Positions 10,885 through 51,121 of a DNA stretch of 64,000 nucleotides are shown here, piece by piece. Where the stretch lies: the NCBI GenBank assembly GCA_044226625.1, contig JBGAGQ010000033.1:1-64000 (forward strand), in the 5' to 3' direction. A model generated the notes under the pieces. It did not search any database. It saw nothing but the letters and a program-made list of their open reading frames with translations, and was not told the DNA's origin. This stretch comes from Thermoanaerobaculia bacterium. GTDB taxonomy: Bacteria > Acidobacteriota > Thermoanaerobaculia > Multivoradales > UBA5704. Made by a program: the position numbers and the translations under genes. Within the stretch, counting starts at the first letter, position 1. Each line of letters starts with the position of its first letter.

Positions 10885-11052
10885 ATGAACACCAAGCGAA
10901 AGATGCAGCTCACCCTGTCGAAGGAAACCGTGCGGGCGCTGTCCGAGAACGAGCTGTCGCAGCTCCAGGCCGGCAAGCCCGGTGGCACGGTGACGACCAC
11001 CCTCGACCCCGATTGCTTCTACACCACGCCCAGCTACTACCACTGCCCGTAG
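10885..11052 (+). CDS. Class I lanthipeptide-like RiPP precursor peptide (55 aa), orphan
   Basis: MNTKRKMQLTLSKETVRALSENELSQLQAG-KPGGTVTTTLDPDCFYTTPSYYHCP: LxLxKx5L leader, Thr/Ser/Cys-rich core; RBS GAAGGA; downstream hairpin 11079-11102. Confidence 0.75.
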   Translation: MNTKRKMQLTLSKETVRALSENELSQLQAGKPGGTVTTTLDPDCFYTTPSYYHCP

Positions 11053-11078
11053 TGTCTCCCGGCTCCTTCGGCGGCACA

Positions 11079-11102
11079 GGTGCGGCCTCGTCGGGCCGCA
11101 CC
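11079..11102 (+). terminator. Hairpin downstream of precursor peptide 1
   Basis: GGTGCGGCC-tcgtcg-GGCCGCACC perfect 9 bp stem; no clear U-tract. Confidence 0.45.
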
Positions 11103-11121
11103 GCGCCGGAAAGAGTGCCGT

Positions 11122-11169
11122 TTGACGGCATGGCGCGTCGTCCGTACGATGTACATCAAGGTATACAAA
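11122..11169 (+). promoter_or_regulatory. Duplicated sigma70 promoter/operator of the second antitoxin
   Basis: TTGACG 11122-11127, 17 bp spacer, TACGAT 11145-11150, GATGTACATC palindrome. Confidence 0.7.
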
Positions 11170-11187
11170 AGGAAGCACCGAGCGAAA

Positions 11188-11463
11188 ATGTCCAAGAGCT
11201 ATTCGATGGCGGAGGCTCGAGAAAACTTCACTCGGGTGGTCCACGAGGCCGAAGAGGGTGAACGGGTCGAGCTCACGCGGCGCGGTCGGCCGGTGGTGAT
11301 CTTGATGTCCCTCCCGGAGCCTGGACGAATCGCCGACGCCAAGCCTTCCTTCTGGGAAGCGTACGAGGCGTTTCGAGGTCGCTACGAGGGCTCAGACGTA
11401 GACGTGGACGACGTTTTCGAAGGGCTTCGAGAAAGTTCGCCGCGCCGCCACTTCGAGTGGTGA
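11188..11463 (+). CDS. Second Phd/YefM antitoxin, paralog of 10069-10344, without a toxin
   Basis: MSKSYSMAEARENFTRVVHEAEEGERVELTRRGRPVV...GSDVDVDDVFEG, colinear and same length as copy 1; no toxin ORF follows. Confidence 0.85.
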   Translation: MSKSYSMAEARENFTRVVHEAEEGERVELTRRGRPVVILMSLPEPGRIADAKPSFWEAYEAFRGRYEGSDVDVDDVFEGLRESSPRRHFEW

Positions 11464-11531
11464 TCCGGATCGAAAATAAGGTTCGTGCTCTAAGTCCTCG
11501 ACACCAAGGCGGAGCGGCCTCTGCTCAAGTC

Positions 11532-12287
11532 TCAGACCCGCCCGAGCCGCAGATGGAGCGGCCAGCTTAAGGTGCGCACCCGGCCGCGCTCCGACGGGCC
11601 GCCCCAGGCGGCTTCGAGGTCGGAGGCGACTTCGGCGAGCGGGTCGGCCCCGGTTTCGCGCCGGCAGCGGACGATCGAGGACCAGGTGGAGACGTAGGCG
11701 ATCAGCTGGTCGAGGTTCCAGTCGACCGACATGGTGAAGGGGGGCGCCTCGACCTCGGCGAAGGGGAAAGGGAGGGTGCGGTATTCCTCGCTCACCCAGC
11801 GTCGCTCGGGCGGCCAGTAGGAGAAGACCCGCTCCTCGGCGAGGTAGTCGAGCACGCGGTCGATCGCCGGCTCGGAGCGGAGGAGGTTGTAGCTCCAGGC
11901 GGCGATCAGCCCGTCCGGGCGGAGGACTCGCCGCACCTCGGCGTAGAACCGTTCGAAATCGAACCAGTGGATCGCTTGGGCGATGGTGACCAGGTCGACC
12001 GAGCAGGCGGCGAGGCCGCTCGCCTCGGCGGGCGCGCGTCGGACCTCGATCCGTGGATGGGGCTGGAAGTGCGAAACCTGCTCGGCCGAGGCGTCGGTCG
12101 CGACGACGACCGCGAACCGATCGGCGAGCGGGATCGCGGCCTGGCCGTTGCCGGTCGCGCAATCCCAGGCGAGCCCGCACCCCGGCGCGCCCCCGGCCAG
12201 GAAATCGAACAGCTCGTCGGGATAGCGATCGGGGCGCGCCGACGCGTACGCCGCGGCGTGGCCGGAGAAATGATCCTTGAAGCTCAT
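11532..12287 (-). CDS. Class I SAM-dependent methyltransferase
   Basis: FKDHFSGHAAAYASARP, AWDCATGNGQAA, DLVTIAQAIHWFD. Confidence 0.9.
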   Translation of the reverse strand: MSFKDHFSGHAAAYASARPDRYPDELFDFLAGGAPGCGLAWDCATGNGQAAIPLADRFAVVVATDASAEQVSHFQPHPRIEVRRAPAEASGLAACSVDLVTIAQAIHWFDFERFYAEVRRVLRPDGLIAAWSYNLLRSEPAIDRVLDYLAEERVFSYWPPERRWVSEEYRTLPFPFAEVEAPPFTMSVDWNLDQLIAYVSTWSSIVRCRRETGADPLAEVASDLEAAWGGPSERGRVRTLSWPLHLRLGRV

Positions 12288-12350
12288 CGCCGCGGATTCT
12301 ATCCGTCGGCGTCCGGCAAGAGAGGAGTGCCGCCTCGCGGCGGTTGGGCT

Positions 12351-13235
12351 TTAGCGGCCGACCGACGCGGTGGAGGGGAGCCCGACCGACGTCTCTTCGG
12401 CCGGCGCGCCCGACCGCGGTGTCGGCGGCGAATCGGGTTCGGATCGCGGAATCTCGGCGGCGATCCGGCGGCCGGCGTCGGTCGCGCGCAGGACGAACTC
12501 TTGGGCGAGCAGGCGGTAGGCGGCGGCGCCTTTCGCCTTGTCGTCGAACTGGAAGATCGACTGGCCGTGCTCGGGCGCCTCGGCGAGGCGGTTGTTCACC
12601 CGGATCTCGATCGCGAACACCTTCGAGCCGAGCTCGGCGCGAACCGCTTCGACGTTCTTGCGCGTCGACTTGATCCGGTAGTCGACCATCGTGAGCAGGA
12701 CGCCGAGCAGCACGATCCGGCCGCCCGCGTCGTGGCTCGCCCGGAACGCGGCGGCGATCAGGTTGGTGACGCCGGTGAGCGCGAGGAACTGCGGCATCGA
12801 GGGGACCAGGAACGCGTCGGCCGCGACGATCGCGTTGACCGGCACGAGCGACAGCGAGGAGGGACAGTCGAGGAAGATCAGGTCGTAGCGCGGCGCCACG
12901 GAGGCGAGCGCGCTCCGGAGGCGGGTCTCGCGGGAGCGGAAGTGGGAGAGCTCGCGGTCGGCGTGGATCAGGTCGACCGAGGCGGTGATCAGGTCGAGGC
13001 CCGGCACGCGCGTTTCGCGGATCGCCTCGCTCGCGAGGAATCCGCCGAGCAGCACGTCGGCGGACGAGGGGGCGAGCTCCTCGCGCGGCACGCCGAGCGA
13101 GAGCGAGGCGGAGGCCTGGCTGTCGAGGTCGACCAGCAGGACCCGCCGCCCGGAGAGGGCGAGCGCCGCCGCCAGGTTGACCGACGTCGTGGTCTTGCCG
13201 ACCCCGCCTTTCCGGCTGATGACCGCGGTAATCAT
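12351..13235 (-). CDS. ParA/Soj-family ATPase (no adjacent ParB)
   Basis: Deviant Walker A RKGGVGKTTT, VLLVDLDSQ, YDLIFLDCP, RLAEAP; ATG 13235. Confidence 0.88.
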   Translation of the reverse strand: MITAVISRKGGVGKTTTSVNLAAALALSGRRVLLVDLDSQASASLSLGVPREELAPSSADVLLGGFLASEAIRETRVPGLDLITASVDLIHADRELSHFRSRETRLRSALASVAPRYDLIFLDCPSSLSLVPVNAIVAADAFLVPSMPQFLALTGVTNLIAAAFRASHDAGGRIVLLGVLLTMVDYRIKSTRKNVEAVRAELGSKVFAIEIRVNNRLAEAPEHGQSIFQFDDKAKGAAAYRLLAQEFVLRATDAGRRIAAEIPRSEPDSPPTPRSGAPAEETSVGLPSTASVGR

Positions 13236-13426
13236 TGCCTGATCTCGATTTATCCCACGATGAGGCCCGCGGAGCAAGCGGAAAAGTGAATTCCCATCGG
13301 AGCTTGTCGCGGTCGGACCGGCCGGAGGTGTACAATTCGACGTACGCGCAACAACGGTGAGGTCGGCCTCCCGCGAGCTTCCCGCCGGCCGAAACCGATC
13401 GGGCTACGCGGGGCAGGGAGGCTTTC

Positions 13427-16024
13427 ATGGCGACCCAGAAACCGAAAGGCATCCTTCGTAGCATCAAGGAGTACCTGGGCCTCGGCGACAACCCGATGCG
13501 CCCTCCGGTCGGCTGGCTGCTCGACCGCCAGCTGGTCACCAACCTGCGCGAGATCCTGATCTTCAGCGCGTTCGGCACCCGGATCGATCCGCGGATCTGG
13601 ATGGTCGGGCGCGAGTACGACTGCACCCGCGATTTCGAGGGGGACGAGATCTGGTTCGACTACATGTCGGACTCGGGCGACGGCATGCGCGCGACCTACA
13701 GCATCGCCTACCTCGTCTATTCGGAGCTGTTCGTGCCCAAAGCCGCGCGGGCGGGGGATGCCGTCTCCTTCGAATCGGACGACGGCGTGCTCGAGAGCCT
13801 GCCGCGCGGCTCGTTCCTGTTCGTCGGCGGCGACACGGCCTACCACGTCGCCGATTACGAGACGCTGGTCGAGCGCTTCCAGACGCCGTTCGAAATGGCT
13901 TACGGCCACCTGCTCGACCAGGGCAAGGTCGACCGCAAGGACCGGCGGCCGATCTTCGGCATCCCGGGCAACCACGACTATTACGACTTCCTCGACGGCT
14001 TCAACCGCCAGTTCCGCAAGCCGTTCGGCGAGGAGCACAAGTTCAATCCGAACCGGAAAGGGGACCAGCCGCAGCTGGTGCTCGGCGGATTCGAGCGCAA
14101 GCAGTGGGCGAGCTTCGTCTCGATCGAGCTGCCGTTCGGCTGGCGGATGTGGGGATTCGACGCCGAGAAAGGCGTGATGGACCGGCGCCAGCGGCATTTC
14201 TTCCAGTCGATGCTCAAGGATCCCGAGAAGGCGACCGATCGGCTGATCGTCGCCACCCCCGAGCCGATCACCAAATTCGGCCAGCGCGCCGATCCGGACG
14301 CCGCGATCGTCCAGACGATGCGCGCGATCGGCCTACCGTGCCCGTTCCTCGCCTCCGATCCTCCGGAGCAGCTTCCCGCGGGAGGCTGCCGGCTCGACGT
14401 CTCCGGCGACGTCCATCACTACGCGCGCTACTGGGGCGCAGAGCCGGGCGCCACCGAGCCGGCGCATTACGCCTCGGTCGTCTCGGGGCTCGGCGGGGCG
14501 TTCCTCCATCCGTCGTGCACGAACGTGGGGGAGGTGCCGTCGGAAGCCTGCTATCCGCCGCCCAAGGAGGCGCTCGCCGAGGTCGTGCGGCGGGTGCAGC
14601 ATCCGTGGATGATCGTCCTCGGCGGCAGGATCTGGCTGATCGGCCTGCTGATCGCCGGATTCCTGTTCGTCGCCGCCGCGACCTCGGCGAGCCTGCGCCA
14701 CGCGATGAAGCCGCTTTTCGACCTCGTGGGCCTGACACTGCCGGAGCTCGGCTCGGCACCGGACCGCTTCGGAGACTCGAGCGCCCTCGGAATCATCGCC
14801 GACGCGGTTTCCGCGGCGCCGCAGAGAGGGCTCGAGGCGCTCAAAGGTGCGCTGCTCGTGAACCGCACCCTCCCCGGATCGTCGCCGGCCCAGAACATCC
14901 TGGACGCCGCGGTACCGGGCCAGCGCTGGAACGACGAGCTCTACTACTTGCCGCTGCTGTTCCTGGTCGCCATCTGGGGGACGCGGCGCAACAGCGCGCT
15001 CGCCAAACGCGCGGCGAAAGGGGAGCAGATCCCCAGCTCGGCCTATCAATGGCCGATCCACGTCCTGGGCATCTCGGGCATCCTCTCGGTGCTCTGGATC
15101 TTCGGCCACCCCGGCGACACCCAGTACGGCTTGCTCTATCCGCTCGCCTCGAACCTCGTCGTGCTGGTGGGACTGACGTTGAGCTACCTCTCGCTCCTCT
15201 GGAGCCGGCAGTACGACGAAGCGATGAACCGGGTCGCCCGCGCCAAAGGGCGCCTCACCGTGAGCGACCAAGTCCACGGCTGGCTGCTCTGGGCGTTCAC
15301 GCTCCTCTCGCTGCTCCTCGCCGTGACCCGGTACGGGGTGGACACGCTCGCCGTGGTGTCGTTCGACATCACGTTCCTGGTCGTGGTGATCGGCCTGCTC
15401 TTCGGACTGCCCGGCTTCGCCTACACGGTGGGCGGAGAGCTGCACGGCCGGGCGGGCAAGGTCGGCTTCCTGCTGCTCGGGCTCTGGCACGCCTTGCTTC
15501 AGCTCGCGATGCCGCTCCTCCTCGTGGTGGCGCTCCCTCCCGCCCGCGCGCTCACGATCGGGCTCGCGACGGCGGCGTTGAGCTGGGCGGTCGGTCGCCT
15601 CGCGCCGCGCGTCCTCACCGACGGCGCCGCCAACCGGCGGTGGCTCGGGACGGGGCTGATCGCGCTCTGGGTGGGCTGGATCGTCGCGGTTCTCCTCTAC
15701 ACGTTCGCGCACGAGGCACCGCAGCAAGCGACCGCGGCGTCGCTCTTCACCGCGCTCGCGCTCGGCATGACGCTCGCCTGCACCTTCTTCGGCCAGTACC
15801 TCGCGATCTCGATCTGCTTCGACGGCCACAACAACGAGGCGGGCGGCGGCGCGCGGATCGAACAGTGGAAACAGTTCATCCGCTTCCGCCTCACGAAGGA
15901 GGGCCTCACCGGCTACGTCATCGCCGTCGACGAGGTCGAAGAAGACGGGCGTCTCCTGAAGCCACGCCTGGTCGACGTCTTCGAGGTGAAGCCGAGGTTG
16001 AAAGGCGGAAGTGGGGTTGGCTAG
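13427..16024 (+). CDS. Calcineurin-like metallophosphoesterase with a multi-pass membrane region
   Basis: SDSGDG, VGGDTAYH, IPGNHDYYD, SGDVHHYAR, GLGGAFLHP; many hydrophobic segments; C-terminal HNNEA...FIRFRL. Confidence 0.8.
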   Translation: MATQKPKGILRSIKEYLGLGDNPMRPPVGWLLDRQLVTNLREILIFSAFGTRIDPRIWMVGREYDCTRDFEGDEIWFDYMSDSGDGMRATYSIAYLVYSELFVPKAARAGDAVSFESDDGVLESLPRGSFLFVGGDTAYHVADYETLVERFQTPFEMAYGHLLDQGKVDRKDRRPIFGIPGNHDYYDFLDGFNRQFRKPFGEEHKFNPNRKGDQPQLVLGGFERKQWASFVSIELPFGWRMWGFDAEKGVMDRRQRHFFQSMLKDPEKATDRLIVATPEPITKFGQRADPDAAIVQTMRAIGLPCPFLASDPPEQLPAGGCRLDVSGDVHHYARYWGAEPGATEPAHYASVVSGLGGAFLHPSCTNVGEVPSEACYPPPKEALAEVVRRVQHPWMIVLGGRIWLIGLLIAGFLFVAAATSASLRHAMKPLFDLVGLTLPELGSAPDRFGDSSALGIIADAVSAAPQRGLEALKGALLVNRTLPGSSPAQNILDAAVPGQRWNDELYYLPLLFLVAIWGTRRNSALAKRAAKGEQIPSSAYQWPIHVLGISGILSVLWIFGHPGDTQYGLLYPLASNLVVLVGLTLSYLSLLWSRQYDEAMNRVARAKGRLTVSDQVHGWLLWAFTLLSLLLAVTRYGVDTLAVVSFDITFLVVVIGLLFGLPGFAYTVGGELHGRAGKVGFLLLGLWHALLQLAMPLLLVVALPPARALTIGLATAALSWAVGRLAPRVLTDGAANRRWLGTGLIALWVGWIVAVLLYTFAHEAPQQATAASLFTALALGMTLACTFFGQYLAISICFDGHNNEAGGGARIEQWKQFIRFRLTKEGLTGYVIAVDEVEEDGRLLKPRLVDVFEVKPRLKGGSGVG

Positions 16025-16359
16025 AGGTTGAGCACGAGCCGAAGGCCGGCATCCAGCTCGGAGAGCGACTCCGAAGCGAGAACCCCGGTTCGCTCGACGA
16101 AGTCCGAGCGAAGGACCTTCTGGACGTCGTAGAGATTTGCGACCGACTCCTTGGCGAGGCCGGTGGCGGTTCGCGACAGCCGAACGTTTCCGGGGAGGCC
16201 CGCGAGGTGGAGTCGGCTTGTCAGCGGAGCAACGAGGAACGAACGGACGCGCGGCTCGCGAACCGCATTGCTCTGGACGACGACCGCCGGCCGAAGCTTG
16301 TCCACCCGCACCCACCAGACCTCGCCCCGGCGGGGGAGAGGCTCACCACTCGTCGTCAC
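16021..16359 (-). CDS. mazF: MazF/PemK-family endoribonuclease toxin
   Basis: PRRGEVWWV...KLRPAVVVQSN...VAPLTS...GLAKESVAN; GTG start 16359 overlapping the antitoxin end. Confidence 0.88.
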   Translation of the reverse strand: MTTSGEPLPRRGEVWWVRVDKLRPAVVVQSNAVREPRVRSFLVAPLTSRLHLAGLPGNVRLSRTATGLAKESVANLYDVQKVLRSDFVERTGVLASESLSELDAGLRLVLNL

Positions 16360-16579
16360 GGTACTCTTCGGCCATGCGCGCCCGCTGGTGGCGCCGCCAG
16401 CTTTCCTCGTCGTCGGCGACGTCCCAGCCGTGACGATCGATGTAGCTTCGGACCTCGGCCTGCGTTCGCTCCACCTCGAGCAGTTGAGCGAGGAGCCCCG
16501 AGCGTGAAGTGCCCCGGCGCTCGGCTTCTTGATCGGCGAAGGTGAGCAGATCCGCTGGAAGGGAGACGCCAATCTTCAT
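16343..16579 (-). CDS. Ribbon-helix-helix antitoxin of the MazF toxin
   Basis: MKIGVSLPADLLTFADQEAERRGTSRSGLL (RHH pattern), directly upstream of mazF. Confidence 0.85.
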   Translation of the reverse strand: MKIGVSLPADLLTFADQEAERRGTSRSGLLAQLLEVERTQAEVRSYIDRHGWDVADDEESWRRHQRARMAEEYRDDEW

Positions 16580-16669
16580 AGAGAGAAGAGGGTATCACCC
16601 CCGGGCATACCCGGAGCTCACGGGGAAGCGCGTTCGATCGCGCGGTCTCCTTTGATACCATCTCGGGCC

Positions 16670-17776
16670 ATGGAGCCCCTCGATCCGAAATTTCGACGAC
16701 CGCAGAAGATTGCGGTCCTGCCCGGCGACGGCATCGGCGTGGACGTGACCGCCGAGGCGGTCAAAGTCCTTGAAGCCGCCGCCGCGGGGTGGAGCCTCCC
16801 CCTGGAGCTGGTCCACCTCCCGTACAGCGCCGACCACTACCTCGCGACCGGCGTCAGCCTGCCGCCCGGCACGCTCGACGAGTGGCGCGACCATTACGCC
16901 GCGATCTTCATCGGCGCGTTCGGCGATCCGCGCGTGCCGGACATGAAGCACGCCGCCGACATCCTGCTCGGCACCCGCTTCGGCCTCGATCTCTACATCA
17001 ACTTCCGGCCGGTGAAGCTCTACGACGCGCGTCTCTGCCCGCTCAAGAACAAGACCGAGAAGGACGTCGACTTCGTCGTCTTCCGCGAGAACACCGAGGG
17101 CGCGTACGTCGGCGTCGGCGGCAACTTCAAGAAAGGGACTCCGGACGAGGTCGCGGTCCAGGACGAGATCCATACCCGCAAGGGGGTGGAGCGCATCCTG
17201 CGCGCCGCGTTCGACTACGCCGTCGCCCACGGCAAGACGAAAGTCTGCATGAGCGACAAGGCGAACGTCATGCGCTTCGGCCACGACCTCTGGCAGCGCG
17301 CCTTCGCCGAGGTCGCGCAGGACTATCCGGGCATCGAGACGAGCCATCTCTACGTCGACGCGCTCACCATGATGATGGTCAAGCGTCCCGAGAGCTTCGA
17401 AGTGATCGTCACCAACAACATGTTCGGCGACATCGTGACCGATCTGGGCGCGGCCCTTCAGGGCGGGCTCGGGATGGCCGCGTCGGCGAACCTCCACCCC
17501 GGCCGGACCTCGATGTTCGAGCCGGTCCACGGCTCGGCGCCGAAATACGCCGGCACGGGCCAGGCGAACCCGATCGGCGCGATTCTGTCCGCCGCGCTCA
17601 TGCTCGAAACGCTCGGCCACGCCGAGGCCGCCGCGGCGGTCGACGCCGCCGTGCTCGCGGCGATCCGCGACAGCTCGACGACCGTCGACGTCGGCGGAAC
17701 GATGAGCACGAGCGAGGTCGGCAGCGGCATCGCGCGCCGCGTCGAGCGCGCGGCCCTCGCCCCCGCCGAGGCGTAG
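16670..17776 (+). CDS. leuB: 3-isopropylmalate / beta-decarboxylating dehydrogenase
   Basis: IAVLPGDGIG, VFRENTEG, NMFGDIVTD, MFEPVHGSAP, ANPIGAILS; exact substrate not certain. Confidence 0.8.
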   Translation: MEPLDPKFRRPQKIAVLPGDGIGVDVTAEAVKVLEAAAAGWSLPLELVHLPYSADHYLATGVSLPPGTLDEWRDHYAAIFIGAFGDPRVPDMKHAADILLGTRFGLDLYINFRPVKLYDARLCPLKNKTEKDVDFVVFRENTEGAYVGVGGNFKKGTPDEVAVQDEIHTRKGVERILRAAFDYAVAHGKTKVCMSDKANVMRFGHDLWQRAFAEVAQDYPGIETSHLYVDALTMMMVKRPESFEVIVTNNMFGDIVTDLGAALQGGLGMAASANLHPGRTSMFEPVHGSAPKYAGTGQANPIGAILSAALMLETLGHAEAAAAVDAAVLAAIRDSSTTVDVGGTMSTSEVGSGIARRVERAALAPAEA

Positions 17777-17805
17777 GCCGGGCGCCGTTTCCCGGAGAGA
17801 TTCCC

Positions 17806-19095: not shown

Positions 19096-19113
19096 CCGGG
19101 CCCCATAGCGATC

Positions 19114-20259: not shown

Positions 20260-20413
20260 TCCCTCCCTTCCTCCACACACGATTGAAAAGAGGCTCACGC
20301 CCCCATTCGACCTCCAACGTCCCGCCCCGACGGGTGAGGTCGGGGCCGTTTCCCCCGTGCTAACCTCGCGAATCGAACACGGCAGAGGCCAACCACGGGG
20401 AGGTTAGAACCCG

Positions 20414-23395: not shown

Positions 23396-23407
23396 AGGTC
23401 ATGAGAG

Positions 23408-42375: not shown

Positions 42376-42450
42376 TCCTCGCGGAGCCCGGCGCGCGGCG
42401 GCGGTCCGTCGCGGGCCGACATTTCGAGAGCGCTCCGGAAGGAGGGTCGA

Positions 42451-43161
42451 TTGGACCGAGGCACGACCTTGACGGCCCACACGGCGAAGCCCGCGGTGTT
42501 CCGACCGGGCGCTCGACAATGGGTGCTCTACGGCTTCGTCACGCTGTTGATCGCTTTCCAATCGCTGTTCTTCTTCTTCGATCCCGTCGGGCCGCTGGTG
42601 CGACTCCTCGGCGGGGCCGGAATCGCCCTCTGGATCGGATTCCTGATCGCGAGCGCGCGGGCGCGGCTCGAGATCCACGACGACACCGTCGAGGTCTACA
42701 GCCCGGCCTACCGACTGGCCCCCTCGAAAGGGGGGAAAGTCGTCTTCGCCGTGCTCGTCGTCTTCGTGGCTTACGACCTCGCGGTGCTCGCCCTCGGCAC
42801 CCCGCCGCTCTGGATGCGGCAGCTCCGGTTCGTCGGGAGCTTCGCCCTGGTGGCGCTCTACCTCATCCTCATGCTGCTCTACCTCGAGCCGGGCCGGCGG
42901 AACATCCGCTACACGGACATCGTCTCGGCCCCGGAGGAAGTCGATTGGCAGCCCTCCCCTTGGGTCCGGAAGAAGGCCCTATTCATGGAGGTGTCTCGGG
43001 GGACGACGCCGTTCCAATTCCCGCCCTGGCTCAGCGAAGACGATCGCCATGAAGTCCAAGGTCGCGTCACGGCGCGGATGAAGCACGCCCACGCCTTGGA
43101 GCAAGCGCGGGAGGCGGCGCTGGACGGCCGTTCTCTAGAGGCAGTTTCTCCCGAGAGCTGA
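42451..43161 (+). CDS. Hypothetical membrane protein (about 4 TM)
   Basis: Four hydrophobic segments and gene-like codon usage; start uncertain. Confidence 0.6.
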   Translation: MDRGTTLTAHTAKPAVFRPGARQWVLYGFVTLLIAFQSLFFFFDPVGPLVRLLGGAGIALWIGFLIASARARLEIHDDTVEVYSPAYRLAPSKGGKVVFAVLVVFVAYDLAVLALGTPPLWMRQLRFVGSFALVALYLILMLLYLEPGRRNIRYTDIVSAPEEVDWQPSPWVRKKALFMEVSRGTTPFQFPPWLSEDDRHEVQGRVTARMKHAHALEQAREAALDGRSLEAVSPES

Positions 43162-43327
43162 GAGGCGCCGTGAGCCTCGAGCTTCGCAGGTCGGCGGTGC
43201 TACCTGGCCATCGCGCCCAAGATCGATGCAGGCCGCCTCGGCTCGGTCGAGGCGGGGGAATGCCCATCCTTGCGGCCCTCCCTTTCCTGGCCGCATTTGC
43301 CTTTCGCTTCCTCGCCCGAGATCTCGT

Positions 43328-44623
43328 TTACCGCACGACGCCCCTGAAGCTCGGCGTATACGCCGGATCCGGGAACACCGCCGCGAGGTTTGTGTTGCCG
43401 AGGCGTTTCTGCAGGATCTCGGCGAGGACGTCGCGGTAGTCGATGGTGATTTGGAGATCCTGGTCCTCGTAGAGCTGATCGGGGGCGAGGCCGGGCCAGT
43501 CGGCGAGGACGCGCCCGCCGGCGATCTGGCCGCCGAGCACGAGCATCGCGCCGCCGTGGCCGTGGTCGGTGCCGCGGCTCGCGTTCTCGTTGGCGTTCCT
43601 CCCGAACTCGGACTGCACGGTCACCACCACGCGATCGAACCCGCTCGTGAACAGGTCCTTGTGAAACGCCGCAAGGCCGCCCGAGAGGCTCCGCATCAGC
43701 ACCGCGAGATCGCCGTCGATCGCACCCATCTCTTCGTGGCTGTCCCAGCCGGAGAGGTCGATCGTCGCGGCCTCGACGCCGACCTGCGCCTTGATCAGCG
43801 CCGCGGTCGACTTCATCGCGTTGCCGAACTCGTCGTCCGGATACTCGGCGCCGCCGGCCGGATGGTAGCCGGCGAAGTCGATCTGCTGGAGCAGGTCGAT
43901 CGTCCGCGTCGTGTTGTTCGCGGCCGCTTTCAAGAGCGAGTCGGTCGCCGCCGCGTACATCGAGTCGAGCGCGCGCCGGCGTCCGGTCGCGAGCGCCTCG
44001 TCGCCCGAGAGTCCCACGTCACCCAGGTCGCGGACCGGTACGGTCTGTGGCCCGCCGACGAGGCTCCGCGGCAGGCCGTAGCCGAGCCCGAGCGCGCGCA
44101 GCGGCGCGCCCGCGACGGCGGGCGGCGTGGTCGCGAGATGGCGGCCGATCCAGCCGGTGAAGAGCGAGGTCGGCGGCTCCGGCCGGCCCACTTCCATAAA
44201 GTACATCGCCGAGAAGTGCGACCGCGTCGGATCGGGGAGGCCGGTCGCATGCACTAGCAGGAGCGCCCCGTCGTCGTACGCCTCTTGGAGCGCGCCCATC
44301 GCCCGCGGCAGACCGAAGAAACCGTCGAGGTCGATCGCGCTGTCTTGCCCGTCGCCGGGACGCGGAATCGCAAGCGTCGGCCGGAGCTCGTAGTAGGCCT
44401 GCTCGCCGTGCGGCACGACGAGCGTGAGGCCGTCGGCGCCGCCGCGCAGGAAGATCGAAACCAGCACGTCGCGCGAGCCCGCACCGCCGGCCGCGAACGC
44501 GATCTTCGGCAGCCAGGCGGGCACCGCGGCCGCGGCGAGAGCGGCGGTGGAGAGGCCGAGGAATCTCCGCCTCGACAGGTGGTTGAACTCCGAGCAGCCC
44601 TTCGGTTCGTCGTGTCGGCTCAT
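43328..44623 (-). CDS. DUF1501 family protein, Tat-exported
   Basis: SRRRFLGL Tat motif, IFLRGGADGL, TRSHF, GWDSH, SEFGR, GTDHGHG, DYRDV. Confidence 0.88.
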   Translation of the reverse strand: MSRHDEPKGCSEFNHLSRRRFLGLSTAALAAAAVPAWLPKIAFAAGGAGSRDVLVSIFLRGGADGLTLVVPHGEQAYYELRPTLAIPRPGDGQDSAIDLDGFFGLPRAMGALQEAYDDGALLLVHATGLPDPTRSHFSAMYFMEVGRPEPPTSLFTGWIGRHLATTPPAVAGAPLRALGLGYGLPRSLVGGPQTVPVRDLGDVGLSGDEALATGRRRALDSMYAAATDSLLKAAANNTTRTIDLLQQIDFAGYHPAGGAEYPDDEFGNAMKSTAALIKAQVGVEAATIDLSGWDSHEEMGAIDGDLAVLMRSLSGGLAAFHKDLFTSGFDRVVVTVQSEFGRNANENASRGTDHGHGGAMLVLGGQIAGGRVLADWPGLAPDQLYEDQDLQITIDYRDVLAEILQKRLGNTNLAAVFPDPAYTPSFRGVVR

Positions 44624-44642
44624 GATCGGTCTCCGAGGGCGA

Positions 44643-46181
44643 TCAGAATTCTTGAAAATCGGGCGAGGCGAGCGCGAGCCCGAGCGCCTCATGGACGCGC
44701 AGCGGCGTCCGCTGCCCACCGCGCAGGAAATCGCGCACGGCGTTCTGCGTCGCGGGGGCGAGCTTGCCGTTCGCGACCAGCGCGTTGATCCGCGTGGTGA
44801 GCGCTTGCGGCGTGAGGTTGCCCGGCAGCACGCCGTCGAGCTCGGTGCGGATGCCGAGCGAATCGCCGGCCGAAAGATCGAGCGTGAAGTTCCAACGGTT
44901 GCGGAGGAATCCGGTCCAGTACGCCCGGTTGTCGGGATAGCCGTTCGGCGGCGACCAGTAATAGGGAAGATGCCCCGAGTCGGCGAGGTGGTCGAACAGC
45001 GGCCCCGGATCGTCGACCGCGCCGAACGTCGCGCGCACGGCGGAGACGGCGTAATGGAACGGCCGCTTGAGCTTTGCCGGAGCCACCTGGATCCAAGGTT
45101 TCTGGAGCACCGCGCGGAGCATCGCCTTGATGTCGCCGCCGGTGTTGCGGAAGACGGTCGCCACCCGGTTGACGTAATTCGCGGGCGGCTCGTACCCCCA
45201 GAAGTAGACCAGCAGCTTGGTCGCGATGTGGCGCGCGGTGTTCGGATGGATCGCGAGCCGCGCGATCACCTTTTCGGCGTCCGTGACGCCGCCGCCCGCG
45301 GGGATGTTCAACCCGATCACCCGCTTCGCGCCGAAGTCGTGCGCGTCGGGCTCGAACTTGAACGCGCCGAAATTCTGCGCGTCCTCCTCCCAGACCACGA
45401 ACCAGCCGGTGAGGCAGCGGGCGATCTCCCGCACGTCGATCTGGGTGTACCCCTGATCGGCGCCGAGCGAGTGGAGCTCCATCACCTCGCGGCCGTAGTT
45501 CTCGTTCGGATAGTCGGCGTAGTTCGAGTCGTTGGAGAGGTAGGTGAGCATCGCCGGGCTCTTCGAGCTCGCCTTCAACAGGTCCGGAAACTTGCCCAGC
45601 GCGTGCTTGCGGATGACCTCGCGCTCGTCGACGTGCTTCAAGAAATACGCGGTGTCGCCGCCGAGGTCGATGTTGAAATGGTCGGTCCAGAAGTGGACCA
45701 TCGTCTCGAACAGCTGGCGTTTCGAATAGATCGCGCGGTAGATCGCCGCGACCGGCATCTCGTAGGAGAGGTCGAAGTTCTCGCCGAAGTAGAGCTCGCC
45801 GGGCGTCTTCGAGAGCGTCGGCAGACCCTCGGCAAGAGCGTCATCGAGCTCCGAGTCGTCGAGAGCCGTGTAGTTCAGCTGCTCTTCGAGATAGGCGGCG
45901 TATCCGATCTGCCGCATCCGCGCGTGATCGGCGCTAGTCGGCCCGAACGAGATTCGCTGAAGAAGCCGCTGCTCCGGGGTGAGCACGACGCCGGCGTTCG
46001 CCGTTTCCTCCTCCGGTGCCGCGAGAGCCGCGATTTCGGCGCCGTCCTTTCCCGCGGGCCGGCCGAACCGTTCGGCGAGCGCGCGAAGCCGCGGATGGTC
46101 GGCCCGACGGGCCATCTCGGCCTCGGGGCGCGGGCGGTTCAAGCCGAAGAATCCCGGCGCGGGAGCGGCGGCGCGTCGCAT
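44643..46181 (-). CDS. DUF1800 family protein
   Basis: RISFGP, QLFETMVHFWTDHFN, PAMLTYLSN, PNENYGREVMELHSLG, LASPDFQ; usual partner of DUF1501. Confidence 0.88.
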   Translation of the reverse strand: MRRAAAPAPGFFGLNRPRPEAEMARRADHPRLRALAERFGRPAGKDGAEIAALAAPEEETANAGVVLTPEQRLLQRISFGPTSADHARMRQIGYAAYLEEQLNYTALDDSELDDALAEGLPTLSKTPGELYFGENFDLSYEMPVAAIYRAIYSKRQLFETMVHFWTDHFNIDLGGDTAYFLKHVDEREVIRKHALGKFPDLLKASSKSPAMLTYLSNDSNYADYPNENYGREVMELHSLGADQGYTQIDVREIARCLTGWFVVWEEDAQNFGAFKFEPDAHDFGAKRVIGLNIPAGGGVTDAEKVIARLAIHPNTARHIATKLLVYFWGYEPPANYVNRVATVFRNTGGDIKAMLRAVLQKPWIQVAPAKLKRPFHYAVSAVRATFGAVDDPGPLFDHLADSGHLPYYWSPPNGYPDNRAYWTGFLRNRWNFTLDLSAGDSLGIRTELDGVLPGNLTPQALTTRINALVANGKLAPATQNAVRDFLRGGQRTPLRVHEALGLALASPDFQEF

Positions 46182-46275
46182 GCGTCTCTCTCCTATGGGT
46201 GAAGCGAGTCGAGGCGTATTTTGATCGGCGATCCTGATATTTGCAAGCGTCGATATCTTGGGTGCGGATGGCCGC

Positions 46276-46345
46276 GTCGGGGCGGAGTTTGCTTCCGCCC
46301 GCGGTTGTGGCGGGGGATCAGGGCCGAGGCAAGCTCCGCCCCGAC
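46276..46345. repeat. REP/REPIN-like inverted pair (second family)
   Basis: GTCGGGGCGGAGTTTGCTTCCGCCC ... GGGCCGAGGCAAGCTCCGCCCCGAC; overlaps the 3' end of the HXXEE gene. Confidence 0.7.
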
Positions 46346-46770
46346 GAAAGGGACACCACCGTTGACCGGCCGAAGAGGTGACGCACGAGCAGGAACACCA
46401 GCGCTCCGAGGATGGGGGCGGTGGCGACCCCGGGTGTATAGCCCCCTTGGAGGATCGACCACGCGGGATGCCCGATCGCGTTGATCCCCTCGATCACGGT
46501 CCAAAATCCGAGGACGATCGACGCCGAGCGCCACCCGAGCCGCACCGGAAACAGCCAGCACAGCACGCCGAAGAGCACGAGCGCGATGTTCGCCTCGACG
46601 AACCCGCGCTCCAGGTTCGCGGACACCAGCCCCGAGACGAGACGCGCGGGGGGGAACGTCTCCCACAACCGCCCGACGTACTCCTCGACCGAATGCGCCG
46701 CCTGGGCGAGCACGAGGGCGCCGAAGAGGAGGGTAGTCTTTCGGTTGGGGCCCGGATTGGACTCGGTCAT
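46318..46770 (-). CDS. HXXEE-domain membrane protein
   Basis: AQAAHSVEEY, NAIGHP, GGYTPGVATAP. Confidence 0.85.
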   Translation of the reverse strand: MTESNPGPNRKTTLLFGALVLAQAAHSVEEYVGRLWETFPPARLVSGLVSANLERGFVEANIALVLFGVLCWLFPVRLGWRSASIVLGFWTVIEGINAIGHPAWSILQGGYTPGVATAPILGALVFLLVRHLFGRSTVVSLSSGRSLPRP

Positions 46771-46786
46771 GGCGGCTCCGTACCCT

Positions 46787-46939
46787 TTACTCCGCCCGAA
46801 CGGAGGTCACGAAGAACCCCTCGGAAAGTTGCGCAGGGGCCGGCTCGGGAGCGGGGGGCGCGGGCCTCTGGGCGTGGGCCGACCAGGCGAGCGTCACGAC
46901 GAGGGCGAGAAGGCCGAGGGCGATCGAAGTGGTGCGCAT
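46787..46939 (-). CDS. Small secreted peptide (50 aa), not in the ORF track
   Basis: MRTTSIALGLLALVVTLAWSAHA-QRPAPPAPEPAPAQLSEGFFVTSVRAE; AGGAGG RBS 5 nt upstream; AHA signal peptidase site. Confidence 0.6.
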   Translation of the reverse strand: MRTTSIALGLLALVVTLAWSAHAQRPAPPAPEPAPAQLSEGFFVTSVRAE

Positions 46940-47113
46940 GGAGTCCTCCTGGACGGCGTCAGTTCGAGCCGGGCGGGTTCCGGCGGCGGTTCTCTCGGAC
47001 CCGGATGTTTCGATGAGATCGAGTTTACGCCCCGTGCGTGGCCGCGGACCGAGGACGGGCTACAATTCGCGCAGGGTTCCTTCTCCTGCGGAAACGAGGA
47101 AGTTCGCTTGTTC

Positions 47114-49903
47114 ATGCGCGCCTGGGTCCTCTCCGTCCTTCTCACCGCGGCGACCGCTCTCGCGGCGACGCCACCCCGGCCGTATCTGGTCAGGGACATC
47201 GATCCTTCCGGGGTCGGCATCGGCTCGGAGCCCACGGGGTTCGAACGCCTCGGGTCGCGGGCGATTTTCTTCACCAACACGGGCGAGCTCTGGTCGAGCG
47301 ACGGCGAGCCGGGGGGCACGGTTCGGCTGAGCGGCGAGACGTTCTCGCCCTCGGCGTTGGCGGTCGGAAAGAGCCTCGCCTACGTGCTCGCGGACGATCC
47401 TCACGGCCGGCAGGTCTGGGCGACGGACGGGACCGTCGGGGGCACGCGGCGGCTGACTGTGGAGCCGCTCGGCTTCGACGAGCGTCCGCGGAGGAATTCG
47501 CGGCTGGTCCTGCCGGGTGGCGACCGGATCTTTTGGAGCGCCGAGGGGGCGGAGCACGGCAGCGAGCTTTGGACCAGCGACGGCACGGTGGAGGGGACCC
47601 GAGAAGTCGCCGACCTGGCGCGAGGGAACGCCGGGTCGGAGCCGCACGAGATGACGTACTTTCGCGGCCGGGTCTACTTCGTCGCGGACGACGGCAGCGG
47701 GTTCTCGCTCTGGGCGACCGACGGAACGCTCGACGGCACCCGCTTGATCCGCGATCCCGAGCCGTCGATCCGGCAGACGGATGGGCCGCGCTTGCTCACC
47801 GTGGTCGGAACGCGGCTCTTTTTCTTCGTTCGCAACGCTGACGGCTGGACGCTCTGGCAGAGCGATGGTCGCCCGGGAGGCACGTCGCGCGTGGCGCCGG
47901 TCGGGCGCGGGACCATTTCGCTCGGGGTGAGCGACGCGATCGGTCGGGGTGGCCGCCTCTTCTTTCTGGCCCGGACGGGCGAGAGCCGGCAACTTTGGAC
48001 GTCGGACGGCACCGCGGCCGGGACTCGGCGATTGACTCGCTTTTCCACCGCGTCGAGCACTGCGGAGGAGAGGTTCCCGCCTCAGCCGGAGGGGGGGGAT
48101 CGGTTGCTGTTCGTGGCGACGGACGAGGGGCACGGCCGCGAGCCGTGGACCTCGGAGGGTACGGCGGCCGGAACCAGCCGGCTCCGGGACGTCTGCCCGG
48201 GTCCCTGCGATGGCTGGACCGATGGGAACGATCCGAGCGATGCGTCGGGATCGAGCGATGGCGGGTCGGATCGGGTCTCCGCGTTTCGCGGCCGGGTACT
48301 GTTTCCGGGGACGACGCCCGCGCGCGGCACGGAGCTTTGGAGCACGGACGGCACGTCCGCGGGAACCCGCTTGCTGTTCGACGCCTGCCGCGGCGCTTGT
48401 TCGGGCTCTCCCGATCCGATCGCCGCGGCAGCCGGGAAGCTCTATTTCGGCGCCTTCGGCGGCTCTCGCGATCAGATCTGGCGTACGGACGGCACGTCGG
48501 CGGGCACTTTCCGCGTGTCGGACTTCGAGGTCGCGTCGGGCGCGGGGGCACGGTACGAGGGAGCCGGAGCCGGTACCTTGTTCCTGTTCGGCGGGCAGGA
48601 CGCGGTGATTGGCCGGGAGCTCTGGCGCACCGACGGCTCCCGCCCGGGGACCGAGCTGGTCGCCGATCTCGTGGCGAACCGCCCCGGCAGCTCGTCGCCG
48701 CAGGAGATCCATCGCGCGGGATCGCGCGTGATCTTCCTCGCCGACGGGCACGAGCCGGGCGGGGGAGGGGTGGGGCTCTGGTCGAGCGACGGGTCGGAGG
48801 AGGGCACGGGGCAGATCGTCGAGCCGACCGGACCGGGCTCGCCGTTCCTCCTCTCGAGCGCCTCGGCGGGAGTGCACCTCACCTACTTCTATCGAGTCGA
48901 AGGCGGCGTCTACGGTATTTGGCGTTCGGACGGCACGGTGGCCGGTACGTTCGAGATCACGCCGCCGGGCGTCCGCGTCGAGACCTCCCAAGCGGTCCAG
49001 GTCTTCGGCGACCTGGGCTATTTTACCGCCGAGGATTCCGATCACGGCGAGGAGCTCTGGCGCACCGACGGCACCCCGGAGGGGACCTTTCTCGTCGCCG
49101 ACGTCGATCCCGGGCCGCCCGGCTCGCAGCCGGATCGCTTCGCCTCGTTCGTCGGCCACCTCGTGTTCGAGGCCCGCGTCGCGGGAGATCTCGTCCTCTA
49201 CGTGAGCGACGGCACGGAAGAAGGGACCCGGCCGCTGGCCGAAGCGTTCCCGTTCCTCGATCCGCTTGCTGGCGCTCGCCTGCTCGACGCCGAATCGGAG
49301 GGCGTCGCCCTCTTCCAGAAGAGCGACCCCACGGGCCACGCCGAGATCTGGGCGACCGACGGCACGGAGCCGGGCACCCGACGCCTGCTCGCGGGGCTCA
49401 CGTATTTGAGCGACTTTTCGGCGTCCGATGGGAGCTTCCTGTTCCGCGCCGGTGCCTCGTTCGAGACGCAGGCGATCTATCGGTCGGACGGCACGAGCGC
49501 CGGCACGCGGGCGATCGCGACGGACCTCTTCCTGCGCTCCGACCTCGTGAAGCTGCAAACCGTGGGCGGACGGTACCTGTTCAGCGCGGCACGGCTCGAC
49601 GATCCGTCGCATCCGGCGCTTTACGCCTCCGACGGAACTGCCGAGGGGACGCGCCCGTTGATCGAGACGGAGGCCGCGGTCGACGCGCCGCGAAGCGCCG
49701 CGCCGTTCGGGAATCGGATCCTGATCGCCGGAGGGAGCCGCCTCTGGAGCAGCGACGGCACGCCGGAGGGGACGTCCGTCGTCCTGGAGACCGGTTCCGC
49801 GGCGCGGGCGCCGCTCCCCGTCGTGGCCGGCGGCCGCGCCTTCTTCGCCTGGACCACGCCCGAAACCGGCACGGAGCTCTGGGCGGTGGGATCTCCTCCC
49901 TGA
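47114..49903 (+). CDS. ELWxxDGT-repeat secreted beta-propeller protein
   Basis: Signal peptide and many ELWTSDGT/ELWRTDGT/LWSSDGT repeats; ATG 47114. Confidence 0.92.
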   Translation: MRAWVLSVLLTAATALAATPPRPYLVRDIDPSGVGIGSEPTGFERLGSRAIFFTNTGELWSSDGEPGGTVRLSGETFSPSALAVGKSLAYVLADDPHGRQVWATDGTVGGTRRLTVEPLGFDERPRRNSRLVLPGGDRIFWSAEGAEHGSELWTSDGTVEGTREVADLARGNAGSEPHEMTYFRGRVYFVADDGSGFSLWATDGTLDGTRLIRDPEPSIRQTDGPRLLTVVGTRLFFFVRNADGWTLWQSDGRPGGTSRVAPVGRGTISLGVSDAIGRGGRLFFLARTGESRQLWTSDGTAAGTRRLTRFSTASSTAEERFPPQPEGGDRLLFVATDEGHGREPWTSEGTAAGTSRLRDVCPGPCDGWTDGNDPSDASGSSDGGSDRVSAFRGRVLFPGTTPARGTELWSTDGTSAGTRLLFDACRGACSGSPDPIAAAAGKLYFGAFGGSRDQIWRTDGTSAGTFRVSDFEVASGAGARYEGAGAGTLFLFGGQDAVIGRELWRTDGSRPGTELVADLVANRPGSSSPQEIHRAGSRVIFLADGHEPGGGGVGLWSSDGSEEGTGQIVEPTGPGSPFLLSSASAGVHLTYFYRVEGGVYGIWRSDGTVAGTFEITPPGVRVETSQAVQVFGDLGYFTAEDSDHGEELWRTDGTPEGTFLVADVDPGPPGSQPDRFASFVGHLVFEARVAGDLVLYVSDGTEEGTRPLAEAFPFLDPLAGARLLDAESEGVALFQKSDPTGHAEIWATDGTEPGTRRLLAGLTYLSDFSASDGSFLFRAGASFETQAIYRSDGTSAGTRAIATDLFLRSDLVKLQTVGGRYLFSAARLDDPSHPALYASDGTAEGTRPLIETEAAVDAPRSAAPFGNRILIAGGSRLWSSDGTPEGTSVVLETGSAARAPLPVVAGGRAFFAWTTPETGTELWAVGSPP

Positions 49904-49962
49904 AGGATCGCGGTCGCGCGGAAAACCGGGGCGGCGCGCTCCCGGCGTACAATCCCGCCCGC

Positions 49963-50898
49963 ATGTCGAAGCCGAGCTCCACGGACCGCGCCGCGCTCAC
50001 CGGGCGCTTGGGCATCCTCGCCGCCGCCGCGCTGTTTTCGACCGGCGGCGCCGCGGTGAAGTCCGCTTCGCTCACCGGCTGGCAGGTCGCGAGCTTCCGC
50101 GCGGGCACCGCCGCGATCGCCCTGTTCCTCCTGCTGCCCGAGGCGCGCCGACGGCCGGGACCGCGGACGCTGCTCGTCGCGGTGGCGCACGCGACGACGA
50201 TGATCCTGTTCGTCCTGTCGAACAAGCTCACCACGGCAGCGAGCTCGATCTTCCTCCAGTCGACGGCGCCGCTCTACGTGCTGCTGTTGAGCCCGTGGCT
50301 GCTGCACGAGAAGGTGAAGCGGCGCGACCTCTACTTCGTCGTGCAGATCGCGGTCGGGCTCGGACTGATGTTCGTCGGGCTCGACCCCGCCTCGTCGACC
50401 GCGCCGCGGCCGCTGCTCGGCAACATCCTGGCGCTCGCCGCCGGGCTGTTCTGGGGGCTTTCGGTGATGGGCTTGCGCTCGCTTAGCCGGCCGGACGGCA
50501 ACGGCAGGAACGAGGGCTCGGCCGCGACGGCGACGTTGTGCGCGAACACGTTCGCCTGCCTCGCCTGCCTGCCGTTCGCGTTGCCGGTCGCCTCGGTGAG
50601 CGCGGTCGACCTGTCGGTGATCCTCTACCTCGGAATCTTCCAGATCGGCGTCGCCTACGTCTTCATGACCCGGGCGATCCGGCACGTGCCGGCGTTCGAG
50701 ACGTCGCTCCTTCTGTTCCTCGAACCGGTGCTCAACCCGATCTGGGCCTGGCTCGTCCACCACGAGCGGCCGAGCGTCTGGTCGCTGGTGGGAGGGCTCG
50801 TGATCCTCTCGGCGACGCTGCTGAAGACGTGGCTGGAGGCGAGGGACGGGGCCCGGGAGCCCGCCGCCGTGTTGGCTGGCGAGCCGCATGGCTCGTGA
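49963..50898 (+). CDS. EamA/DMT-family transporter
   Basis: About 10 TM; LFSTGG, LQSTAPLYV, LEPVLNPIW. Confidence 0.9.
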   Translation: MSKPSSTDRAALTGRLGILAAAALFSTGGAAVKSASLTGWQVASFRAGTAAIALFLLLPEARRRPGPRTLLVAVAHATTMILFVLSNKLTTAASSIFLQSTAPLYVLLLSPWLLHEKVKRRDLYFVVQIAVGLGLMFVGLDPASSTAPRPLLGNILALAAGLFWGLSVMGLRSLSRPDGNGRNEGSAATATLCANTFACLACLPFALPVASVSAVDLSVILYLGIFQIGVAYVFMTRAIRHVPAFETSLLLFLEPVLNPIWAWLVHHERPSVWSLVGGLVILSATLLKTWLEARDGAREPAAVLAGEPHGS

Positions 50899-50918
50899 GC
50901 GGCCCGACGTAGAGAGGA

Positions 50919-50940
50919 CGGGCGCCGGGAACGGCGCCCG
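50919..50940. terminator. Hairpin between convergent EamA and precursor peptide 2
   Basis: CGGGCGCCG-ggaa-CGGCGCCCG, followed by a pyrimidine run on the minus strand. Confidence 0.55.
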
Positions 50941-50965
50941 GTCGAGGGGCAAGGAGTTTCGTGGG

Positions 50966-51121
50966 CTAGCGGTCGATACAGGTGGTCTCGGCGTGGAATC
51001 CCGCCGAGGCGCACCATCCGAGCCCTTCGCAGGTGTAGGTGAAGGATCCGCCGGCGATCAGGTCGCGAAGGTTCGTGATCGTCTCCTTGGCGAGCACCAG
51101 CTTCTTCGGCTGCTTCTTCAT
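50966..51121 (-). CDS. Second class I lanthipeptide-like RiPP precursor (51 aa), orphan, not in the ORF track
   Basis: MKKQPKKLVLAKETITNLRDLIAGG-SFTYTCEGLGWCASAGFHAETTCIDR; LxLxKx5L leader, GG, core with 3 Cys and 6 Ser/Thr; RBS AAAGGAG. Confidence 0.78.
   Translation of the reverse strand: MKKQPKKLVLAKETITNLRDLIAGGSFTYTCEGLGWCASAGFHAETTCIDR

Follow-up and report, generated by a model that had tools for sequence, protein, structure and literature searches.

Two small genes of a Thermoanaerobaculia bacterium as probable members of a dispersed class I lanthipeptide precursor family presumably matured in trans

The stretch of DNA analysed here, referred to as the window, comprises 64,000 nucleotides of a Thermoanaerobaculia bacterium (contig JBGAGQ010000033.1 of assembly GCA_044226625.1) and carries two small genes, P0001 and P0002 (Table 1), which had been picked out from the sequence as orphan lanthipeptide-type precursors. 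Our analysis indicates that both open reading frames (ORFs) probably belong to a family of 56 class I lanthipeptide precursor genes, which are scattered over the genome and would be matured in trans by one set of enzymes. The evidence comes from the leader sequences, the enzyme inventory of the genome, the co-occurrence of leaders and LanB in related genomes and the turnover and conservation of the precursors among relatives.

The original prediction had described each of the two ORFs as equipped with a ribosome-binding site (RBS) and a downstream hairpin, and both translate as claimed and have these elements. Their leaders contain the motifs QLTLSKETVRAL (P0001) and KLVLAKETITNL (P0002) and end, according to the translation, in AGKPGG and AGG, i.e., near an AG or GG site as had been noticed, and translation and alignment bear out that the two cores are unrelated to each other. 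In NCBIfam the peptides match the lanthipeptide leader models lant_leader L1a and L1b alone, and a Pfam scan of both peptides matched no family. P0002 reaches 23.4 bits on the L1a model for class I lanthipeptides (NF038153, lant_leader_L1a), which is above the curated cut-off of 22 bits. With a leader profile derived from the same genome, P0001 scores 40.1 bits and P0002 32.7 bits compared to a maximum of 10.2 bits on the reversed genome, and the leader that both genes were said to share is thus common to them beyond chance. Judged from these sequence features, P0001 and P0002 appear to be real, self-contained precursor genes (LanA).

The original prediction had staked itself on further ORFs with the same leader and on a compatible maturase elsewhere in the genome. 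A search of the genome (G000; 6.6 Mb, 133 contigs, 67.7% GC, 97.9% complete), in which the window is contig C22, with NF038153 at E ≤ 10 yielded 41 places, 39 of which are short ORFs that join this leader type to a tail rich in Cys, Ser and Thr; the remaining two correspond to the N-terminus of a polyketide synthase/nonribosomal peptide synthetase (PKS/NRPS). A profile was built from the 39 leaders, searched against all six-frame ORFs of at least 25 amino acids and iterated once, using the reversed, not complemented, genome as a control. This profile recovers 56 precursor ORFs, 54 of them in addition to P0001 and P0002, each with at least 25 bits. The second round brought no new member, and the best control score, which was 10.2 bits in the first round, reached 17.0 bits in the second. 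High-GC genomes contain many long spurious frames, which would allow the family to be a collection of chance open frames with a coincidental leader motif, but the gap between control and family scores, the lack of any NF038153 match in 14 control genomes at E ≤ 0.03 and the presence of RBS, hairpins and conserved orthologues reduce the probability of this explanation to almost nothing.

All 56 reading frames are intact and consist of a leader, a cut site and a Cys-containing core. They encode 48–83 amino acids with 2–10 Cys each and start with ATG in 46, GTG in eight and TTG in two cases. An RBS-like word is located at −4 to −16 in 49 of 55 family members, and the 70 nucleotides downstream of the precursors fold with a mean of −33.1 kcal/mol compared to −24.6 kcal/mol for random genomic 70-mers (folds below −25 kcal/mol: 47 of 55 versus 146 of 300). 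Across 31 aligned members, L8, L10 and T14 do not vary and E13 and L18 hardly do, which corresponds to the LxLxKx5L pattern. In detail, the common leader has a basic start followed by L-x-L-x-[KR]-E-T-[LVI]-x-x-L and then a GG, GA or AG site, as in the ‘L1a’ type of NF038153, and this site lies ahead of the first Cys in 53 of the 56 members. Cys accounts for 16.4% of the core residues and 0.1% of the leader residues, and the number of Ser plus Thr at least equals that of Cys in all 53 cores that could be split, a result that tests composition only. The cores are Cys/Ser/Thr-rich and mostly unrelated to one another. A comparison of pairwise identities of leaders and cores (0.50 versus 0.34) was not relied on, as the split is crude and low-complexity cores inflate identity.

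The 56 precursors are distributed over 33 contigs in 46 groups, namely 38 singles, six pairs and two triplets. A closed 8.8 Mb Thermoanaerobaculaceae chromosome shows 19 leader matches between 0.09 and 8.37 Mb and carries LanB at about 1.20 Mb. A fragmented assembly is not the cause of the dispersal, because the leader matches of this closed relative also span the chromosome. As a side observation, contig C16 (70.7 kb) is a hotspot with seven of the 56 precursors (at 3938, 23721, 24147, 49804, 54992, 67201 and 67563), and the other contigs carry one to three.

The compatible maturase was also found. G000 has one full-length LanB of 1123 amino acids (C93:86980-90363) with an N-terminal dehydratase domain (PF04738, 572 bits) and a C-terminal elimination domain (PF14028, 229 bits), for which the nearest solved structures are 9g04, MibB (5ehk, E 1.4e-51) and NisB (4wd9, E 2.6e-22). 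It is flanked by a sugar-type ABC transporter with a solute-binding protein on one side and by glycine-cleavage P/H genes on the other. This housekeeping neighbourhood is colinear in relatives of the same genus, and in G000 neither a LanC nor a precursor lies beside LanB. Furthermore, the genome encodes two LanC (PF05147), LanC1 on contig C4 and LanC2 on contig C114, one with an ORF of 438 amino acids and the other with an open frame of 466 amino acids, and the HGVPG, WCYG and CHG motifs for zinc binding and acid-base chemistry are intact in both. LanC1 comes immediately after three precursors, and its flanking genes encode a DeoC aldolase, a protein with metallo-beta-lactamase fold and 2-oxoacid dehydrogenases; LanC1 matches the LanC-like protein 8byk (E 1.7e-18) and NisC (2g02, E 5e-6). 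LanC2 has no such partner and is located between genes for an aminotransferase and a TonB-dependent receptor. A single ORF combines C39, ABC_membrane and ABC_tran domains (787 amino acids, C93:132017-134380) and is preceded by an HlyD-like gene.

No two of the genes for LanB, LanC1, LanC2 and the exporter are linked. Three of the 56 precursors, all at LanC1, are located within 1 kb of an enzyme gene, and the next nearest one on a common contig is 24 kb away from the exporter. That no maturase lies near P0001 and P0002 had been stated for the window and extends to the whole contig, as C22 contains none of the genome matches to PF04738 (LanB), PF05147 (LanC), PF03412 (C39) or PF04055 (radical SAM). 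A search of G000 for LanM (PF13575) gave no match and is without a positive control, as it matched in no control genome either; both LanC-domain ORFs of G000 are short. The stretch just downstream of LanB varies among the relatives: it measures 1.3 kb in G000 (L034:14365-15670) with ORFs that have no Pfam match, only about 40–50 bp in two relatives, and a leader-type ORF is located there in another one (L040:11627-11827).

Dehydration by class I LanB enzymes proceeds through glutamyl-tRNA. Some LanBs depend on the tRNA-Glu and GluRS of their own organism (PMC9576775). In the mechanism we propose, the conserved leader would bring each precursor to LanB, which would glutamylate Ser and Thr residues and then eliminate the glutamate, LanC would add Cys thiols to form thioether rings, and the C39 exporter would cut after the double-glycine-type site and export the product. 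One enzyme set would in this way produce dozens of different peptides, and the system would parallel, with class I enzymes, the class II prochlorosin system. We infer expression of the precursors, binding to LanB, dehydration, cyclisation, cleavage and export from the gene content, and on the same basis it is probable that many different peptides depend on one enzyme set for their maturation.

Additional evidence for a connection between leaders and LanB comes from a set of 41 genomes, consisting of G000 and 40 relatives, in which leaders were recorded as NF038153 matches at E ≤ 0.03 and LanB as PF04738. A leader match was obtained in 23 of these genomes. PF04738 matches at E ≤ 1e-100 in 21 of the 23, the other two (G018 and G022) have only weaker matches, which are split or fragmented, and none lacks a match. 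Among the 18 genomes without leader match, two reach E ≤ 1e-100, six have only weaker matches and ten have none. In the genera g6, g7 and g8, each with one species with and one without leaders, the species with leaders is the one that has the strong or better LanB. The data were cross-tabulated by hand; as related genomes are not independent, we regard the result as supportive and not as a statistic. In the genus of the window's organism, each of the eight genomes has exactly one LanB, two to four LanC-domain matches and, at a loose threshold, 4–25 leader matches.

The trait is narrowly placed. In the family of the organism, 18 of the 24 other genomes have leader matches, up to 38 per genome, compared to four of 150 other genomes in an even sample of the phylum (E ≤ 0.001), with one or two matches each; one of the four, G205, is an unpublished genome. 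The seven closest LanB loci (75–85% identity), including a truncated LanB match with 75% identity over query residues 1–982, show no LanC within the available flank. Many LanB loci at 53–59% identity have a convergent LanC beside LanB and only zero to two leader ORFs nearby, and some loci of Acidobacteriaceae and Kofleriaceae show the classical layout with four to six adjoining precursors. We also considered that a precursor library is a general trait of this LanB clade, which is ruled out by three myxobacterial genomes with an about 50% identical LanB: Archangium has no, Cystobacter two and Myxococcus no leader matches. One Paenibacillus genome has one leader match.

Turnover of the precursors was examined at five loci. 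The whole P0002 unit is part of an insertion (Table 1) between the stop codon of a gene for an EamA-type transporter and the start region of fdhD. It is missing, with abutting flanks, in all five congeners in which a single contig spans the two flanks (G001, G002, G003, G006 and G007). Of four DNA runs compared with the site, the probable source sample gave another assembly that is contiguous over positions 50300-51314 with no difference, and the other runs cover parts of the flanks. Neither a target-site duplication nor terminal repeats were evident by eye at the insertion. No full-length match to P0002 was detected in 40 genomes of the family, and a collection of 5.8 billion proteins contains one 85%-identical relative, which is present on 12 contigs and keeps all three Cys. 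For P0001, homologues occur in two congeners, G003 (62% identity) and G002 (51%), on contigs other than those that match its flanks. Its sequence falls together with nine further 90%-identity clusters, and across all ten clusters the core DPDCFYTTPS..CP is invariant and the middle of the leader variable. At the other loci, G003 and G002 carry the precursor C84:194728 at the syntenic place, G001 lacks it, with 135 bp between the flanks, and neither G004 nor G006 shows a match; for C58:236041, the flanks in G001 enclose no precursor, and G002 has a homologue on a different contig; and C76:89821 has an ORF-only homologue in G006. Precursor repertoires therefore differ between congeners, and homology often stops at the ORF. 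The part of the original prediction that called the cores diversified holds for the family, the members of which are mostly unrelated in this region, but the term ‘hypervariable’ fails for P0001 and P0002, as their cores are conserved elsewhere, and at least some cores appear to be under purifying constraint.

These comparisons also bear on the possibility that only the three precursors beside LanC1 on C4 are true substrates and that the dispersed copies are silent or decaying relics of duplication. The patchy presence among congeners would fit with such relics, as would the upstream regions, in which no common promoter was found (sigma-54-type promoter word in 0 of 55, most frequent 7-mer in at most 11 of 55), and a search for RNA runs covering positions 49900-52200 of the window, around P0002, returned none. 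Decay, however, is difficult to combine with 56 intact frames that have kept leader, cut site and Cys core, with the RBS-like word in most of them, with cores of P0001 and P0002 that are more conserved across independent records than part of the leader, and with the chromosome-wide leader matches of the closed relative. We therefore consider it unlikely that the dispersed genes are relics.

Several observations weigh against the assignment of P0001 and P0002 to a lanthipeptide family matured by one distant enzyme set. P0001 remains with 21.1 bits just under the curated cut-off of NF038153, and both peptides, with two Cys in P0001 and three in P0002, lie at the low end of the family. 53 of the 56 precursors have no maturase nearby, unlike the usual clustering of class I genes. 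The best NCBIfam match of the exporter is an NHLP-type bacteriocin exporter, which stays under its cut-off (623 versus 853 bits), so that the exporter may serve another peptide family. Two genomes of the co-occurrence set, G015 and G029, have a strong LanB and no leader match. Moreover, G000 is a metagenome-assembled genome with 5.5% contamination, and the co-residence of all parts in one cell is therefore taken from the congeners. Finally, the predicted complex of LanB (residues 1–800) with P0002 scored 0.60 compared to 0.02 for the best control, which was graded as weak support for an interaction of the two: 58 of 80 solved complexes pass at this level, as do two of 110 mismatches, and a score of 0.60 or less occurs in only seven of the 80 solved complexes and in both passing mismatches. 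The prediction runs agree in at least 40% of the contacts with a predicted local distance difference test score (pLDDT) of 43–46 for the partner, and the pass may reflect likeness, because the NisB-NisA complex is solved.

The exporter type, the few Cys of P0001 and P0002 and the lack of adjoining maturases would also suit bacteriocins or signals with a double-glycine leader that are cut and exported by the C39 exporter without dehydration, their Cys being in disulfides or free. The GG/GA/AG site and the presence of one C39 ABC exporter with an HlyD-like partner are likewise in line with such peptides. This explanation is improbable in our view, since the leader matches a curated class I lanthipeptide model and no other NCBIfam or Pfam family, leader matches track the LanB type across the 41 genomes, three members are located directly upstream of LanC, and Ser plus Thr equal or exceed Cys in every core that could be split. 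Compared with maturation of the 56 precursors by LanB and LanC, unmodified export and decaying relics both account less well for the leader family, for its co-occurrence with LanB and for the conserved cores.

A different maturase acting on this leader family, either a radical SAM/SPASM protein or an unrecognised enzyme, with LanB and LanC serving few members, was a further alternative. One radical SAM/SPASM gene (C17:4223-5590) is located on the same strand 172 bp upstream of the precursor C17:5762-5986; its best NCBIfam matches are AhbD/NirJ2-like and far under the cut-offs, and it may encode an extra tailoring enzyme for one peptide or be a coincidence. Genome-wide, two of the 25 radical SAM (PF04055) matches lie within 5 kb of a precursor, which we estimate to be about chance. 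Recurrent neighbours were also considered as dedicated partners, but a clustering of all ORFs up to 5 kb from the 56 precursors gave no family at more than five of the 46 loci, and this candidate was rejected. Families that do recur comprise MacB/FtsX permeases, ABC ATPases, two-component and sigma-54 regulators and a Ser/Thr kinase, and the occurrence of MacB/FtsX beside five loci is about chance, because MacB_PCD has 85 domain matches in the genome. A separate maturase for most of the family is therefore very unlikely, and maturation by LanB and LanC remains the preferred explanation. Independently of the precursors, the 85 MacB_PCD matches, at about two per gene, correspond to about 40–50 duplicated FtsX/MacB-type permease genes and represent a large expansion.

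The LxLxKx5L pattern, which the original prediction had named as a class I leader motif, is found as such in the available text of Walker et al. (2020; PMC7268733), where Bacteroidetes class I LanAs are described with this leader, a GG end and a C39 protease. As the leader family has already been curated as NF038153, the notion of an undescribed system has to be dropped in favour of a new arrangement of a known one. As far as the accessible part of this source (PMC7268733) goes, the precursors described here resemble the L1a class I LanAs in leader motif, GG-type end, Ser/Thr/Cys-rich cores and the presence of LanB, LanC and C39 in the genome, and differ from the clustered L1a LanAs of that work in that 53 of 56 precursors are unlinked, the enzymes are unlinked and the host belongs to the Acidobacteriota. 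In the same portion of the text, ten precursors are noted as the maximum in one class I cluster, and the search reached seven genes from a LanC-domain protein, so that scattered prochlorosin genes were missed by this search (PMC7268733). Nisin-type systems have an FNLD/FxLD leader that is cut by a subtilisin-type LanP and thus differ from the combination of LxLxKx5L leader and C39 exporter found here.

According to the accessible text of PMC7268733, PMC9872173 and a 2026 preprint (10.64898/2026.01.17.700038), the prochlorosins (ProcA/ProcM) of Prochlorococcus and Synechococcus share with the present case dozens of scattered precursors with one leader, diverse cores and few enzymes, and, to the extent covered there, repertoires that differ between close relatives. 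In contrast to the one bifunctional LanM and the Nif11-type leaders of prochlorosins given in these sources, a separate LanB and LanC and a short L1a-type leader are present here. By membership the system would thus be of class I and not a ProcM system, and in function, by analogy, it would be like the prochlorosin system. Pedobacter lusitanus NL19 reportedly has several clusters with multiple LanAs. Its PedA15.x peptides are the nearest experimentally studied case within the available part of PMC12328550, i.e., Gram-negative class I LanAs with GG leaders that are cleavable by the C39 domain LahT150.

The out-of-cluster cases listed in the accessible part of the 2026 preprint (10.64898/2026.01.17.700038) are prochlorosins, orphan LanKC and unclustered proteases, and a class I library is not among them there. 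For Thermoanaerobaculia, a class II cluster is mentioned in the available text of a 2026 coral paper (PMC13083261). In the full-text literature within reach, which leaves out most subscription papers and supplements, we found neither a dispersed class I precursor library nor class I lanthipeptides of Thermoanaerobaculia; the supplementary tables of Walker et al. may list related precursors. Going one step further, one could see here a natural combinatorial library built on class I chemistry in one Thermoanaerobaculia family, in which a chromosomally fixed single LanB, at least two LanC and one cleaving exporter would serve more than 50 unrelated cores per cell, and minimal mobile precursor cassettes of about 300 bp, each with upstream region, leader, core and hairpin, would be gained, lost and relocated between congeners. 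ProcM would then have its first LanB/LanC counterpart, and the strategy of serving many scattered substrates with one enzyme set would have originated independently a second time. In our judgement, this proposal could equally well prove right or wrong.

Table 1. Features of the two precursor genes in the window (positions and strands refer to the window).
Feature	Position	Strand	Description	Basis
P0001	10885..11052	+	55 amino acids, class I lanthipeptide-type precursor; leader MNTKRKMQLTLSKETVRALSENELSQLQAGKPGG, core TVTTTLDPDCFYTTPSYYHCP with 2 Cys	translation
P0001 ribosome-binding site	10870..10875	+	GAAGGA, 9 nt before ATG	read from sequence
P0001 GC-rich hairpin	11079..11102	+	10-bp stem after the stop codon, without T tract	folding
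P0002	50966..51121	-	51 amino acids, class I lanthipeptide-type precursor; leader MKKQPKKLVLAKETITNLRDLIAGG, core SFTYTCEGLGWCASAGFHAETTCIDR with 3 Cys	translation
P0002 ribosome-binding site	51127..51132	-	AAGGAG, 5 nt before ATG	read from sequence
P0002 GC-rich hairpin	50920..50940	-	9-bp stem after the stop codon, without T tract	folding
Insertion with P0002 unit	50899..51209		311 bp, with whole unit (upstream region, RBS, ORF, hairpin)	congener comparison

The hairpins downstream of P0001 and P0002 fold with −32.4 kcal/mol (z −1.9) and −28.3 kcal/mol (z −2.7), and equally good folds were obtained in seven and three of 200 shuffles, respectively. A scan for consensus terminators called none on the gene strands of P0001 or P0002, because neither hairpin is followed by a T tract. 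The scan for consensus promoters yielded a single sigma-70-like site, which is located downstream of P0001 in front of the second of two antitoxin genes. In detail, a Phd/YefM-PIN (VapC-type) pair (10069-10344 and 10341-10775) lies upstream of P0001, and a second, closely similar Phd/YefM paralogue without a toxin gene after it follows downstream (11188-11463). The arrangement of this toxin-antitoxin region (10069-11463) relative to the adjoining methyltransferase gene is different in the congeners G003 and G007. P0002 is convergent with the EamA-type transporter gene, which ends at 50898, and divergent from fdhD (about 51234-52118; FdhD according to Pfam).

Some further observations concern the surroundings of these genes and the genome. 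An FtsX/MacB-type permease gene (54821-58123, minus strand) is located 3.7 kb from P0002. At 46481-49903 on the plus strand, the window contains an ORF of about 1140 amino acids, the translation of which shows many repeats of an LW.SDGT..GT-like motif and which presumably resembles the ‘ELWxxDGT repeat’ proteins. The two PKS/NRPS places hit by NF038153 have the same N-terminus at the ends of two contigs (C6:3-1874 and C31:43980-55811). According to the translation alone, the open frame on C31 comprises 3944 amino acids with ketosynthase, condensation and adenylation-type sequence, which suggests a large hybrid megasynthase together with an assembly repeat.

As a rule, class I lanthipeptide enzymes are regarded as specific to one or a few precursors of their own cluster, and genome-mining tools are confined to the vicinity of LanB or LanC. 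If about 56 unrelated cores are indeed processed by one LanB and two LanC, these enzymes would be unusually substrate-tolerant class I catalysts and useful for peptide engineering. Mining centred on clusters would then overlook the larger part of the lanthipeptides of this lineage from soil and bioreactors. Furthermore, the prochlorosin strategy would have two separate origins with different enzyme chemistry, and this would bear on the question why bacteria keep large and fast-changing peptide libraries.

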